DNA of 32,000 nucleotides from Zestosphaera tikiterensis. GTDB taxonomy: Archaea > Thermoproteota > Thermoprotei_A > Sulfolobales > NBVN01. Location of the stretch: NCBI GenBank assembly GCA_003056265.1, contig NBVN01000003.1, positions 60,001 through 92,000 of the forward strand. The letters are read 5' to 3'. The translations under genes and the position numbers were made by a program. Below, one piece after another: positions 13,204 to 26,230 of the stretch. The notes beneath the pieces are model-generated. The model made no database searches. It had not been told where the DNA came from and was given only the letters and a program-made list of their open reading frames with translations. The stretch's first letter is position 1. Each line of letters starts with the position of its first letter.

Positions 13204-13316
13204 TGGCGCCGGGGGCGGGATTTGAACCCGCGCGCCCCAGAGGGGCAGTGGGTCTCACGTAGTGTTTTGCCGGATTGACTCGAGCCCACCCCCTTAGACC
13301 GCTCGGGCACCCCGGC
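13204..13316 (-). tRNA. tRNA-Ser (anticodon CGA) with a ~25-nt intron at the canonical 37/38 position (about 13254-13278); CCA encoded
   Basis: Reverse complement: GCCGGGG/TG/CCC-GAGCGGTCTAA-GGG/G/GTGGG-CTCGAG[TCAATCCGGCAAAACACTACGTGAG]A-CCCAC, then a long variable arm (TGCCCCTCTGGGGC..), then GCGGG-TTCAAAT-CCCGC/CCCCGGC/G/CCA. The class-II variable arm and G73 discriminator fit Ser. Confidence 0.9.
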
Positions 13317-15720: not shown

Positions 15721-15835
15721 CCTGACCGACCTAAGGTAATGATGCTGTTGAGCTTAATAAGATTTAAAACCGCATTAAAAGATTTAATTCCGTCGAAGTA
15801 TTCTAACGATTGGTAACGTAAGGGAGGTAGGATAG

Positions 15836-16375
15836 TTGAAGAGGAACTCCACCATCAAGCAGAGAGGAAGGCTTCTTAAAGTAGTTGACGTAGAACCTAT
15901 AACGACTTACAACCCCAGCATCGATTTAGAGATGCCGGCACTTAATTGCTACTTAGAAAATGGCGAGACATTCACGCTTTATAACGTTCCGTTTGACATA
16001 GCTAAGGCTATAACAGCCCTTAGAAGTTCTTACGCGGAAATAGACGTTGAGGGGGATGACTCCTTCGACGGGAGGGGGACTATATATGACGTGATGATAA
16101 TGTTCTCACCTAGGCTTACAGAACTCCATAACTCAATAAAGAGGGTTGTCATAGATTCTTACGACGTTGGCAAAGGTGTATACAGCGCCAGCCTATATCT
16201 AGAGGTTGATAACTTAACAGTTAAGAAGACTTTAATACCTAGCCACGCTTTATTCCTAGCTATGTTATTTAAGAAGCCTGTCTTCGTAACCGAGGAAGTT
16301 CTTGAAATATCTAAAGAACTTGGCGATGAGTTTTTCGGAGAGTCGGACGACGAAACAACTTTTAAGGACGTTTAA
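15836..16375 (+). CDS. Hypothetical protein with a divergent bifunctional-nuclease (BFN/DUF151)-like domain
   Basis: TTG start 7 nt after GGAGGT (15823-15828). By eye it aligns to the BFN layout: ETFTLYNVPFDIAKAITAL / RGTIYDVMIMF / IKRVVIDSYDVGKGVYSASLYLE / LIPSHALFLAMLFKKPVFVTEEVLE. The usual RP..HDL and RPSDA residues are replaced. The tail is acidic. Confidence 0.55.
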   Translation: MKRNSTIKQRGRLLKVVDVEPITTYNPSIDLEMPALNCYLENGETFTLYNVPFDIAKAITALRSSYAEIDVEGDDSFDGRGTIYDVMIMFSPRLTELHNSIKRVVIDSYDVGKGVYSASLYLEVDNLTVKKTLIPSHALFLAMLFKKPVFVTEEVLEISKELGDEFFGESDDETTFKDV

Positions 16376-16384
16376 CCTTAAGAG

Positions 16385-16828
16385 CTACCTAACGGGCTTC
16401 TGCTTCTTACCCTTTAATAGAGCGTCTAAAGAAACGCCGTTAACCATTATGACTTTATACCTAACCCCCGGTAAGTCACCCATAGACTTACCTAAAGTAC
16501 CGCCTATACCCGCGATTATTACCTCATCGTGTTCGTCAATAAACGTAATGCCACCGTCTTGCGGGACGAACGCCGTAACTACCTTACCGTTTTTAACAAG
16601 CTGAACCCTAACACACTTACGCAGAGCTGAGTTAGGCTGTCTAGACTCAATACCAACCTTCTCTAGAACTATCCCTCTAGCCATTGGAGCACCTTCTAAC
16701 GGATCGTACTTCTCCTTAAGCTTAAGCATTCGTATCTTAAACTCTCTCTGACTCCACCTAAACTTCAGCCTTTTCAACCTAAGCTTCCTAGCGGCGTAAA
16801 GCCCTTTAGGTGCTTTACTTCCAGGCAC
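16385..16828 (-). CDS. rps12: 30S ribosomal protein S12 (uS12)
   Basis: [28 protein letters not shown] core. GTG start 7 nt after GGTGAT. Confidence 0.95.
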
Positions 16829-16873
16829 CGACTAATCACCACATGCTTGAGGCTCCATCTTTTAAGGCGGGGT

Positions 16874-16891
16874 AAAAGCTTATAAGCTTTT
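16874..16891. promoter_or_regulatory. Perfect 18-nt palindrome AAAAGCTTATAAGCTTTT: TATA/BRE-like element, candidate bidirectional promoter (rps12 on -, GC-rich block on +)
   Basis: Its centre lies about 54 nt upstream of the rps12 GTG and about 26 nt upstream of the G-rich block starting near 16909 on the + strand. Confidence 0.45.
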
Positions 16892-16908
16892 TGTAACTTT
16901 ATGTTTTT

Positions 16909-17100
16909 GGTGTTGGGTGTGGGCAACCGTAGCTTGGGATGAGACCCACACCTTCCCGGAGCTGACGGCGGGAGCTGATAGATGATGCGCCCCCGGTGAG
17001 GGGCTTCAGAGAAGTGATGGAAGCCCTAGAGGGAGAACCCCTCTTAAAAACAACAGGGGCCATCAGCACCTACAGCCTCGCTATTTATGAAAGTGGAGAA
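16909..17100 (+). ncRNA. Candidate structured RNA, family unassigned (GC-rich block A)
   Basis: About 62% GC over 16921-17040 (hand count 75/120) with G>C on the + strand. There are several 6-10 bp helices, a TATA-like box upstream and a T6 run downstream. No ORF longer than 30 aa. See findings. Confidence 0.35.
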
Positions 17101-17242
17101 CACTTATAAGTTTTTTGCTTGTATACCCACGCATGTAGGCCAACTGCCTAGCGAAGCAGTTTTAAGTTTTATAGGTGTTGAATAGGTATTAATAGTGCTT
17201 CATTTAGTGGTGGGTTTATAAGTTTTGCTAGCGCTATCGTAA

Positions 17243-17455
17243 AGTGAGGGTTGGGTTGACGATTCGATGAGGAGACGGAGGTAAGGATGAAACCCAACCT
17301 AATGAGGCCCTACCTTCGCTTGAGGGAGTCTAGCGGAGCGATGCGGAAGTCTAAGGCAATGAAGCTAAGCTCTCGAAAAGCGGGGGGTGGAGCGAGGATA
17401 GGGGCGATGAGTACCTACGTATGCAAACGAAAGCTTACATAGGTACGAACCCTAA
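17243..17455 (+). ncRNA. Candidate structured RNA, or a leader plus a 51-aa basic micro-ORF (17287..17442); unassigned (block C)
   Basis: TTTATAAG box at 17215-17222, purine/G-rich + strand, three helices of at least 9 bp, GGAGGT 4 nt before ATG 17287. See findings. Confidence 0.3.
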
Positions 17456-17457
17456 AG

Positions 17458-17901
17458 TTATGAAACGCTAACTACGTCTATATCGTAGTATCGTTTTAAG
17501 ATTACCCTAACTTTATTAACGTTACGTCCGTTCTTACCTATCGCTAACCCTTTATCCTCAGGCATTACTTTAACCTGCAATATCTTCTTACCGTCTTTAA
17601 GCTTGTTCAACTTTATGCTAACTACCCTTGCAGGCAGAAAGAGATTCTTAACGAAGTCTTCAAGTGAGTCAGCCCACTCAACGACCTCAATCCTCCTGCC
17701 TAAGATCTTAGAGAGTTGCTTAACGTTCTTTCCTTTAGCACCTACAGCTAAGCCGGCGGTTCCTGGGGGGACTATATATATTAACGTGTTAGACTCTTCA
17801 TCGACGATGCAGTCCTTAGCCGTAATCCCGGTGATGTCGTTTAAAAGTGCTATATACTTAAGCTCGTCCGCAGTTAATTTTACAGGCAAATCACTTCTCA
17901 C
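17458..17901 (-). CDS. nusA: Archaeal NusA-like protein (two KH domains)
   Basis: Two GxxG KH motifs (VGAKGKNVKQL, IGKNGRNVNKV), about 147 aa, in the position after rpl30e. The GTG start overlaps the rpl30e stop by 11 nt. Confidence 0.85.
   Translation of the reverse strand: MRSDLPVKLTADELKYIALLNDITGITAKDCIVDEESNTLIYIVPPGTAGLAVGAKGKNVKQLSKILGRRIEVVEWADSLEDFVKNLFLPARVVSIKLNKLKDGKKILQVKVMPEDKGLAIGKNGRNVNKVRVILKRYYDIDVVSVS

Positions 17902-26123: not shown

Positions 26124-26230
<107 letters not shown>

Follow-up and report, generated by a model that had tools for sequence, protein, structure and literature searches.

The window analysed here, a stretch of 32,000 nucleotides, comes from a Zestosphaera-like crenarchaeon and carries the minus-strand rpoB-rpoA-L30e-NusA-S12-S7-EF1a-S10 cluster. 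Block A, the GC-rich element considered below, is located in the spacer between the NusA and S12 genes of this cluster (Table 1). The spacer is 630 nt long in the window, 50–75 nt in 26 related species, and 98 nt in two 99%-identical strains (L081 and L083). The 98-nt spacer reads as window sequence 17451.., 17150–17070, 16842.., such that 16842 is joined directly to 17070 and InsA is absent. Two insertions, InsA and InsB, are present in the window and in one metagenome contig of 98.4% identity (L090). The filled state was recovered from independent assemblies, namely L090 from JGI and L085, L097, and L082 from Logan, and the filled allele is carried by the populations of SRR17771679 and JGI 3300005801; InsA, or its left part, is present in L090 (98.4%), L097 (100%), and L082/L098 (99.95%). 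Block A is genuine: a GC-rich element that folds well and lies within a 227-bp insertion carried by only some strains of this hot-spring archaeon.

The empty-site contigs differ from the window by ~1% SNPs elsewhere, which indicates that they represent other strains and not spliced RNA. An archaeal bulge-helix-bulge intron would place two 3-nt bulges with a 4-bp helix between them at both junctions, and by inspection neither strand of the InsA and InsB junctions offers a possible central 4-bp helix. InsA starts 2 nt upstream of the S12 Shine-Dalgarno sequence GGTGAT, and its left flank, ATCACCAC (16835–42), is nearly repeated by its last 8 nt, ATCAGCAC (17062–69). The defining features of a MITE are terminal inverted repeats and a target-site duplication of fixed length. 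The ends of InsA and InsB have no inverted repeats, for which reason a MITE origin is rejected, and their flanking repeats are 8 nt and imperfect (A) or 4 nt (B). The ancestral segment that lies between the insertions bears the original S12 TATA, AAAAAACTTATAAG, on its minus strand.

The initial annotation of Block A had proposed looking for compensatory changes in orthologous spacers. Those of the 26 related species, at 50–75 nt, lack Block A and are too short for the element, and a covariation search in them is therefore uninformative. Searches for further spacer alleles by way of NusA, L30e, S12, and a BFN-domain protein returned only contigs that end at or inside the elements.

Table 1. 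Features of the NusA-S12 spacer and adjacent genes, in window coordinates
Feature	Position	Strand	Description
Ribosomal protein S12 gene	16385..16828	-	PF00164
InsA	16843..17069	+	227-bp insertion with promoter and most of Block A
Palindromic BRE/TATA AAAAGCTTATAAGCTTTT	16874..16891	.	putative promoter
P1 hairpin	16915..16953	+	9 bp (GGGUGUGGG / CCCACACCU), 21-nt loop ending GGAUGAGA
Duplicated 8-mer GGAGCTGA	16958-65 and 16971-78	+	
P2 long-range helix	16970-80 / 17061-71	+	closes multi-branched core; crosses right edge of InsA
P3	16990-94 / 17029-33	+	alternative pairing
P4	17000..17027	+	8-bp hairpin with K-loop-like 12-nt loop
Variable 3' branch	17028..17059	+	hairpin 17028-33/17039-44 of the initial annotation, or P3 + P5
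P5	17038-43 / 17054-59	+	alternative pairing
3' motif AGGGGCCATCAGCACCTAC	17055..17073	+	common to Block B (AGGGGCGATGAGTACCTAC, 17400-18)
Ancestral spacer segment	17070..17150	.	kept in empty-site strains; contains T6 run 17111-16
InsB	17151..17450	+	300-bp sister cassette: AT-rich promoter part and GC-rich RNA (~17245-17452)
NusA (KH domain) gene	17458..17901	-	InsB ends 4-7 nt past its stop codon

Composition, folding energy and promoter sequences of Block A

Over 16921–17040 the plus strand has 75 G+C in 120 positions (44 G and 31 C), precisely as first counted, and all coordinates and strings initially given for Block A are exact on recheck. With ~60% GC in a 44% GC genome, Block A is a GC island of a strength that, outside coding sequence in the 32-kb window, is otherwise reached by tRNA genes only. 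In this respect it is like the GC-island noncoding RNAs of AT-rich hyperthermophiles, in which local GC excess marks structured RNA, but it differs from those described in having no relation in Rfam 15 and in being a presence/absence polymorphism within the spacer of a core operon.

Block A reaches a minimum free energy of −82.1 kcal/mol, whereas its shuffles average −65.4 kcal/mol (z −3.6), and none of 200 shuffles equals it; at 80 °C, z is −3.9. The fold thus beats chance in the shuffled-sequence comparison that had been put forward for it. Since the minus strand comes close (z −3.3, with −4.0 for the core), folding energy alone leaves the strand of Block A undecided.

A TATA-like box (AAGCTTATAAGCTTT, 16876–90) and a downstream T6 run (17111–16) lie exactly where they had been placed. 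Read on the plus strand, the TATA CTTATAAG (16879–86) starts 36 nt upstream of P1. The TATA boxes of the window's three tRNA genes (CTTATATT or TTTTTAAG) start at −32 to −36, and that of InsB (TTTATAAG, 17215–22) starts at −33 relative to the first hairpin of Block B, such that the TATA-hairpin spacing of both insertions matches that of the tRNA genes. Given this tRNA-like spacing and the T6 run that follows, an independent plus-strand RNA gene, as originally suggested, is the best reading, and we infer both transcription and its strand. On the minus strand, the palindromic TATA of InsA could be a new S12 promoter; 16857–16888 resembles the region upstream of S7.

Helices of Block A in two alleles

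The second allele, in L090, is the sole other allele of Block A and differs by 11 substitutions, with a core difference of 10.7%. P1, in which GGTGTGGG (16916–23) had been paired with CCCACACC (16945–52), is exact and is identical between the two alleles. A K-turn in P1 is not claimed, as its 5' strand has no GA and could form a non-standard variant only. The long-range helix was proposed as GGGAGCTGAT (16970–79) with ATCAGCACCT (17062–71) and one A-A mismatch, all of which is correct, and the second allele lends it further support: the pair 16974:17067 changes from G-C to A-U, a compensatory double change, and 16980:17061 changes from A.C to G-C, by which a pair is gained. The compensatory change is one pair, observed in one other allele, and among 11 substitutions one such pair would hit a 10-bp helix by chance ~8% of the time (a rough estimate).

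The initial annotation had also suggested a two-state switch, with either copy of a duplicated 8-mer pairing with the same 3' partner. The 8-mer does occur twice as noted, but the switch is not borne out. The copies diverge in the second allele, to GGAGCTGG and GGAACTGA, and there only copy 2 keeps Watson-Crick pairing; its duplex with the 3' partner has an energy of −17.0 kcal/mol compared with −8.3 kcal/mol for copy 1.

The variable 3' branch accounts for five of the 11 allele differences (17030, 17043, 17044, 17045, and 17047) and the 5' strand of P3 for a sixth (16991). The hairpin first drawn in this branch, AGAGGG (17028–33) with CCCTCT (17039–44), is right as to its strings, but two of its six pairs are lost in the second allele; the alternative pairing, P3 plus P5, gains three pairs there. 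The strings GCCCC (16989–93) and GGGGC (17000–04 and 17056–60), for which alternative partners had been considered, are likewise present as given.

The segment 16992–17029, which includes P4, is invariant between the two alleles. P4 pairs GGGGCTTC (17000–07) with GAAGCCCT (17020–27) around the 12-nt loop AGAGAAGTGATG, again exactly as annotated. The K-loop of A and the K-turn of B were assigned by eye, and the K-loop was judged against the descriptors of PMC4652768. By inspection, the loop can indeed form what its k-loop-like content had suggested: the proposed pairs are A17008-U17018 and the tandem G17009.A17017 and A17010.G17016, leaving a 5-nt loop, GAAGU, with G17019 bulged. With the A-U, G.A, and A.G pairs and the 5-nt loop, the loop AGAGAAGUGAUG would give 10–11 layers, by inspection only. 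P4 so modelled probably carries an L7Ae-type K-loop, from which we infer L7Ae binding.

A K-loop-capped hairpin brings to mind the Pyrobaculum H/ACA-like sRNAs (PMC4652768), in which, as in P4 so modelled, tandem G.A lies ~10 layers above the stem base, a bulge follows one pair after G.A, and single strands flank the hairpin. On this reading, Block A would be a truncated pseudouridylation guide of this type that assembles with Cbf5-Nop10-L7Ae, with P4 as the GA stem and with the flanks ..CCGGUGA (5') and AGAGGG.. (3') as the rRNA-pairing pocket. By eye, the P4 loop fits a K-loop in which one Watson-Crick pair and then a 1-nt bulge stand 3' of the tandem G.A, the descriptor for Pae sR204, sR208, sR209, and sR210 (PMC4652768); 10–11 stacked layers would separate the closing pair from the G.A pairs; and ACA triplets occur at 17050–55 and 17072–74. 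Canonical H/ACA RNAs, however, have an ANA box 14–15 nt 3' of the pocket-closing pair, a 7–9-bp lower stem, and a 5–8/5–6-nt internal loop. In Block A, the corresponding position (17040–42) is CCU, the nearest ACA (17050–52) is 24 nt away, a 17-nt hairpin occupies the 3' side, and no 7–9-bp lower stem lies right under a 5–8/5–6-nt pocket. In contrast to the Pyrobaculum sRNAs, P4 is set inside a larger three-way junction, and a covarying long-range helix closes that junction. The putative guides vary as well: the 3' "guide" bears a hairpin and differs between alleles (17030, 17043–47), as would not be expected of a guide to conserved rRNA. Rfam H/ACA families give no match at E < 10. We regard this assignment as improbable.

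The C/D box sRNA genes of a hyperthermophilic crenarchaeon (PMC6009581) resemble Block A in having their own promoters and K-turn-type GA motifs, in lying hard by protein-coding genes or antisense to them, and in shifting position or copy number between close relatives. Block A, in contrast, has no pair of C (RUGAUGA) and D (CUGA) boxes and no terminal stem with 10–12-nt guides, is 3–4 times longer, and showed no terminal inverted repeats. No C/D plus D'/C' arrangement was found by inspection on either strand of 16905–17116, and the best Rfam C/D matches are to sR43 (11 bits, threshold 45) and SNORD48 (12.3 bits, threshold 36). A gathering-threshold scan of the whole window with Rfam 15 returned two tRNAs only, and a permissive scan of 16700–17600 gave a best E of 1.7 (15.8 bits against an 80-bit threshold). 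The Rfam search suggested at the outset thus assigns Block A to no family at the gathering threshold.

InsB and its copy at a second locus

InsB is a sister cassette situated 80 nt from InsA. Its RNA is made up of hairpin 1, a long central hairpin, and a 3' hairpin, the base of which, GGGY-GAU-GA...GA-ACCC, looks K-turn-like by eye. A copy of B is present at an unrelated locus (L091 1754–2069, 89.6% identity), between other genes, where homology stops exactly at the InsB edges. The B cassette is preserved there in full at ~90% identity, the 95 nt of its promoter region included, and the region of this copy has no Rfam match. InsB sits directly 3' of TGCCTA; the same hexamer stands left of B at each of the two loci, and in the empty site TGCCTA is joined precisely to the flank. 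The sharp edges of InsB at the unrelated locus establish that InsB has moved.

Block B folds better on the plus strand (−71.7 kcal/mol) than on the minus strand (−57.1 kcal/mol) owing to its G.U pairs. Of 210 columns, 118 are paired, and these contain only four of the 18 variable ones (one-sided Fisher p 0.0025). Two stems show a C.A to U-A change, and the 3' hairpin varies nowhere outside its loop; in L091, one pair is lost (G-C to U.U). A K-turn with the bulge GAC in hairpin 1 of B is not claimed to be conserved, as its key G is A in L091.

These observations bear on whether the blocks instead act in cis, as a structured leader or processing element of the minus-strand NusA-S12 transcript such as a ribosomal-protein or L30e/L7Ae feedback site. 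Block A does lie between two co-oriented genes of a conserved operon, beside an L7Ae-family gene, and its minus strand folds well too. Yet near-identical strains and all 26 related species lack the element, the L091 copy of B points the same way as its unrelated neighbours, the G.U pairs favour the plus strand for B, and each block has a plus-strand TATA of its own. We consider such a cis element very unlikely.

A and B share GGATGARAYCCA, which belongs to the P1 part of A, and a 19-mer at equal spacing. The common 3' motif is the bulged strand of the putative K-turn in B and the 3' strand of P2 in A. The global alignment of A with B scores 71 against 47.4 ± 6.7 for dinucleotide shuffles, a value reached by 2 of 1000 (p ~0.002), and an nhmmer profile of B gave no match to A. 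Block A resembles a 3'-truncated relative of B that is without the terminal K-turn hairpin.

Nhmmer profiles of A and B run against the window and 98 loci found the known copies only. Metagenome pattern scans with two motifs shared by A and B returned zero and then three matches, all of them chance matches in bacterial coding sequence; scans of viral contigs returned one chance match (L084) and nothing further, and blastn against phage and plasmid collections had no match. As no further members were found in the metagenome and viral scans, the phage and plasmid collections, a set of 5.8 billion proteins, or the 98 loci, the family appears to be tiny and could be decaying. A search with the B plus-strand ORF was the only protein-level search that recovered copies; A and the other frames of B gave none.

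The 30-aa ATG ORF initially reported at 17017–17109 is present and is nested in a 37-aa GTG ORF, but no ORF in Block A is conserved between the alleles. Small protein genes could be sought in a frame of ~56 codons from ATG 16939 in A and in a 51-aa ORF (17287–17442) after GGAGGT in B. The three differences in the A/B 19-mer fall at third codon positions (GAISTY/GAMSTY), and the B ORF runs uninterrupted through three copies and is annotated as a gene by JGI. The A frame, however, is broken in the window by an in-frame TGA and in L090 by a TAA; all but one of 13 nucleotide changes in the B ORF (12 of 13) are in nonsynonymous codons, with radical replacements; and 60% GC in a 44% GC genome is atypical of coding sequence here. 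The two frames have no homologues or domains, protein and Pfam searches of A and B gave no match in any frame (Pfam on the plus-strand frames included), and exact-protein look-ups of the internal ORFs found none on record. With stops at different places in the A alleles and no synonymous excess in B, neither block is under coding constraint, and a protein-coding reading is scarcely credible.

Could the insertions be functionless DNA, foreign or paralogous fragments patched in by microhomology-mediated repair? The GC-rich hairpins would then be the relic of a source RNA gene, and A would be truncated and decaying, although perhaps transcribed. Presence and absence of the insertion among strains 1% apart, the absence from A of the 3' K-turn hairpin of B, the 10.7% difference between the A alleles in the core, and the near-absence of the family from very large databases all agree with this explanation. 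So does the junction microhomology, which is CCTA/CCTA in one case and ATCACCAC/ATCAGCAC followed by a shared CTAC in the other. Captured DNA does not lead one to expect, however, that the promoter, P1, and P4 are without any change beside a core that varies, with a compensatory pair and pair-gaining changes among its differences, that B substitutions avoid paired columns, or that the entire B cassette, including the 95-nt promoter region, is ~90% identical at a second locus. We judge capture without function to be unlikely.

The mobility of InsB also invites comparison with non-autonomous elements of the IS200/IS605 type (PATE-like), in which the structured RNA would be an omega/reRNA scaffold that reads to the right end, takes the flanking DNA as guide, and serves a TnpB-type nuclease encoded elsewhere. 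InsA and InsB are short noncoding units without terminal inverted repeats or a proper target duplication; both copies of B are found 3' of the fixed hexamer TGCCTA, with a precise empty site; and the ~200-nt structured RNA of InsB points to the right end, where an imperfect subterminal hairpin lies 8 nt from the edge (DNA fold z −2.8). Several features do not fit. Neither A nor B has a left-end hairpin (z ~−0.5), and A, known from one locus, lacks the right-end hairpin as well and has a left flank different from that of B. No TnpB or IscB remnant appears in any frame, no tnpB is encoded in the window, and Rfam HEARO and IS605-orfB give no match. The promoter of InsA and InsB, moreover, is an upstream TATA box inside the element, which is not typical of such elements. 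We therefore hold this origin to be distinctly improbable.

A possible small-RNA gene cassette

We lean, somewhat more than evenly, toward Block A being the RNA-coding core of a small-RNA gene cassette that is self-contained and was acquired recently. On the sequence features described above, it is probably a new plus-strand small RNA gene with an L7Ae-type K-loop, housed in a relocatable cassette. The 227-bp InsA would have carried a BRE/TATA promoter into the NusA-S12 spacer. Transcription would start on the plus strand at ~16905–16912 and end at the pre-existing T6 run (17111–16), yielding a noncoding RNA of ~165–205 nt. We predict that this RNA folds into the 5' hairpin P1 and a multi-branched domain that is closed by P2 and encloses the invariant K-loop hairpin P4. 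With the K-loop as the likely docking site of L7Ae, the RNA would act in trans as a stable RNP and not within the minus-strand mRNA. The palindromic TATA of InsA probably also re-supplies S12 with a promoter.

InsA would belong to a small set of modules that may relocate at the DNA level, each consisting of a promoter and a structured RNA, with InsB as a diverged member of which another copy occupies an unrelated locus. A bolder possibility, which we think rather unlikely, is that InsA and InsB exemplify an undescribed class of archaeal DNA-level mobile units that combine a TATA promoter with a ~200-nt K-turn/K-loop RNA and target short motifs in the intergenic spacers of highly expressed operons. 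Units of this kind could be selfish RNA genes or orphan guides for a nuclease or transposase encoded elsewhere.

In Sulfolobus, 21 sRNAs of unknown function have been reported, six of them enriched with L7Ae (Daume et al. 2017, PMC5539422), and by analogy the Block A RNA would join this L7Ae-bound class. As a practical lesson, strain-level metagenome contigs were the informative source for covariation, and orthologous spacers were the wrong place to look. If expressed, Block A would give the Desulfurococcales a further small RNA family, one that is unclassified and probably binds L7Ae, and it would be a small RNA gene caught during its gain, with filled and empty alleles in one species and within a highly conserved archaeal gene cluster. 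The locus would thereby offer a natural experiment on the spread of archaeal small RNA genes, which until now has been deduced chiefly for Pyrobaculum C/D box genes, and on how the insertion of a bidirectional promoter may rewire NusA-S12 transcription.

Two insertions in the NusA–S12 spacer

The source of the window is a hyperthermophilic crenarchaeon near Zestosphaera, whose NusA is 77–80% identical to that of Zestosphaera and Desulfurococcaceae MAGs. Block A, our GC-rich candidate RNA, sits in the conserved cluster rpoB-rpoA'-rpoA''-L30e-NusA-S12-(BFN-domain ORF, opposite strand)-S7-EF1alpha-S10. The NusA–S12 spacer measures 630 nt in the window versus about 50–75 nt in 26 related species, and the orthologous spacers, proposed in the initial annotation as a source of covariation, therefore lack the element. 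That Block A, a plus-strand candidate between minus-strand genes, is a cis leader seems very improbable.

Public assemblies yielded contigs that encode an identical S12 protein. In two of these, L081 and L083 (both 99% identical to the window), the spacer is 98 nt long and reads ...17451 / 17150–17070 / 16842... in window coordinates, so that the window carries two additional segments, InsA and InsB. The left flank of InsA, ATCACCAC, is nearly repeated as its last 8 nt, ATCAGCAC. Spliced RNA is ruled out as the origin of the empty contigs, because they differ from the window by ~1% throughout and thus represent other strains. The filled state is genuine and no assembly artefact. A JGI contig of 1085 nt carrying a second allele (L090, 98.4%) is collinear with the window across both insertions, Logan contigs L097, L085, and L082/L098 (99.95–100%) run into them from either side, and L086, assembled from the run that also gave L082, ends at the InsB edge. 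With short spacers in all outgroups, parsimony favors two recent gains over one old gain and two subsequent precise losses.

The ends of L082/L098, L097, L085, and L086 fall at 16865, 16939, 17350, and 17456, so that short-read contigs of the same population break at or inside the two elements, as would be expected were these polymorphic, or repeated, within the community. Within InsA, the promoter segment (16857–16888) resembles the S7 upstream region on the opposite strand (15751–15783; 82% over 33 nt; within-window E 0.017), which could reflect generic promoter similarity or the source of the InsA promoter.

Features of the NusA–S12 region, the relocated copy, and neighboring genes (window positions unless stated)
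Feature	Position	Strand	Remarks
tRNA	13207–13316	minus	just downstream of S10; long variable arm (Ser/Leu type), ~29-nt intron; 44 bits in local Rfam scan, missed by whole-window gathering scan and ARAGORN
BFN (bifunctional-nuclease)-domain ORF	15836–16375	plus	179 aa; between S12 and S7, on the opposite strand; conserved in L081, L082, L097
S12 gene	16385–16828	minus	one side of Block A
InsA	16843–17069		227 bp; includes the TATA palindrome and almost the whole of Block A
P2	16970–16980/17061–17071		long-range helix
P3	16990–16994/17029–17033
P5	17038–17043/17054–17059
Hairpin and T4 run	17143–17162		small; CTGCCTAGCGAAGCAGTTTT; across InsB left edge, half ancestral, half inserted DNA; similar in L091 copy
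InsB	17151–17450		300 bp, 80 nt from Block A; second GC-rich block (Block B) and own TATA box, CCTA at both sides
Block B RNA (candidate)	~17245–17452	plus	long central hairpin, K-turn-like 3' hairpin
NusA gene	17458–17901	minus	other side of Block A
tRNA	26125–26227	plus	30-nt intron at non-canonical site, between variable region and T arm; Rfam 63.7 bits, not reported by ARAGORN
InsB copy	L091 1754–2069		unrelated locus, 3' of TGCCTA

Fold, alleles, and coding potential

The base counts, six helices, duplicated GGAGCTGA, TATA-like palindrome, T6 run, and short ORF of the initial annotation all proved exact. The minimum free energy of 16905–17116 (212 nt) is −82.1 kcal/mol against a dinucleotide-shuffle mean of −65.4 (z −3.6, equaled by 0 of 200 shuffles), and the core still exceeds its shuffles at 80 °C (z −3.9). 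Since the reverse complement folds almost equally well (z −3.3), energy by itself cannot assign the strand. The suggested Rfam search, run with Rfam 15, returned no family at Block A at curated or permissive thresholds.

L090 differs from the window at 11 positions, all in 16965–17067 (L090 419–521), a 10.7% divergence of the Block A core in which 9 of 11 changes are transitions; the alleles do not differ in the promoter, the 5' hairpin P1, hairpin P4, or the flanking genes. Such divergence at otherwise identical loci suggests conversion by an unseen paralogue. The long-range helix first seen by eye (P2) finds suggestive support in L090, where 16974:17067 is A-U instead of G-C and A to G at 16980 makes a new G-C pair with 17061; the alternative with the first 8-mer copy gains only two G.U pairs. 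The switch between two folds proposed for the duplicated 8-mer is possible in the window allele, in which the whole-molecule alternatives are nearly isoenergetic, but is not conserved in L090, in which the copies are no longer identical and the copy 2 duplex is stronger (−17.0 vs −8.3 kcal/mol for copy 1). In L090, the proposed AGAGGG/CCCUCU hairpin is short of two pairs, and P3 and P5 each reach full pairing. Drawn from two alleles only, the covariation is suggestive, and we estimate at ~8% the chance of one compensatory pair landing in the predicted helix at random.

Block B has 210 columns, 118 of them paired, and just 4 of its 18 variable columns lie in paired positions (one-sided Fisher p 0.0025, somewhat circular, as the structure derives from the same sequences). 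In other copies, U-A pairs replace two C.A mismatches; a further C.A to U.G change flanks a helix, one G-C pair is disrupted (to U.U), and changes in the 3' hairpin are confined to its loop. G.U pairs give the plus strand of Block B a stability advantage of 14.6 kcal/mol over the minus.

A protein-coding reading of either block was rejected. The Block A frame from ATG 16939 meets TGA at 16963 in the window, and L090, with TGG at that codon, has TAA further on. Between the window and L091, a contig with a second InsB copy, 12 of 13 nucleotide differences in Block B lie in nonsynonymous codons, with radical replacements (S to F, K to E, G to V, R to W). Six-frame searches of 5.8 billion proteins gave no match, nor did plus-strand frames against Pfam, and a small protein is the least probable reading of Block A.

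Relocation of InsB and its probable kinship with Block A

The 51-aa ORF of Block B, used as a search handle, matched two called "proteins," in L090 and in L091 from the same metagenome. The L091 copy (89.6% identity to InsB) is flanked by a PhoU/MazE-domain gene and another gene, shares the orientation of both, and has homology that begins and ends exactly at the InsB edges; InsB is therefore a discrete unit occupying different loci. C-box-like and D-box-like motifs (AATGATGG ... CTCTGAAT) occur in a short segment just upstream of this copy (L091 ~1700–1745); Rfam gave no match there at E up to 1.

Both insertions share a layout in which the TATA box starts before a G-rich hairpin, by 36 nt in Block A (CTTATAAG) and 33 nt in Block B (TTTATAAG), a spacing equal to that of three tRNA genes in the window (TATA starts at −32 to −36). 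The 3' strand of the first hairpin reads GGAUGA(G/A)A(C/U)CCA in both, and ~105 nt beyond it follows AGGGG(C/U)(C/G)AU(C/G)AG(C/U)ACCUA(C/U). Aligned globally, the two RNA regions reach a score of 71 versus 47.4 ± 6.7 in shuffles, a score attained by 2 of 1000 shuffles, yet an nhmmer profile of Block B does not reach Block A, so the relationship is likely but distant. The similarity runs 4 nt past the InsA edge into ancestral DNA (..AGCAC/CTAC vs ..AGTACCTAC), consistent with a B-like donor having been captured at a microhomology and having lost its 3' hairpin. The main rival to the small RNA gene reading, that Block A is a decaying captured fragment, we consider unlikely.

TGCCTA immediately 5' of InsB in both copies, the precise empty site, and the subterminal right-end hairpin of InsB recall non-autonomous IS200/IS605-type elements with guide RNAs, but the missing left-end hairpin, the different flank of Block A, and the external promoter are unlike such elements, and we give this origin little credence. 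Terminal inverted repeats and left-end hairpins were not found at InsA or InsB, and six-frame protein searches and Pfam detected no transposase or nuclease remnant in them. We lean, by a modest degree, toward Block A being an independent small RNA gene on the plus strand, carried by a relocatable cassette.

K-motifs and family membership

The 12-nt loop of P4, invariant in both alleles, can by inspection pair A17008-U17018, G17009.A17017, and A17010.G17016, giving a 5-nt loop with G17019 bulged. It could thus form a K-loop of the L7Ae-bound kind, and we infer that L7Ae would bind it. The base of the Block B 3' hairpin shows on inspection the full K-turn pattern GGGY-GAU-GA-stem...stem-GA-ACCC, invariant in three copies, and would likewise be predicted to bind L7Ae. 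By inspection, the bulge of P4 is positioned as in several Pyrobaculum H/ACA-like RNAs (PMC4652768). Block A lacks an ANA box at 14–15 nt, a lower stem, and a pocket, which excludes canonical H/ACA membership; an H/ACA-like guide is improbable, if slightly less so than an IS200/IS605-type element. Assignment to the C/D box RNAs fails as well.

Block A is a member of no defined family. Among the nearest described phenomena are the Sulfolobus sRNAs without assigned function that associate with L7Ae (PMC5539422), and by analogy Block A may work like the nearest cases, as a promoter-bearing, K-motif small RNA gene that comes and goes among close relatives. On its own, a new family of archaeal small RNAs would be unsurprising. 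Filled and empty alleles inside the rpo–S12 cluster, together with a relocated sister cassette, make the mobility of a small RNA gene directly testable.
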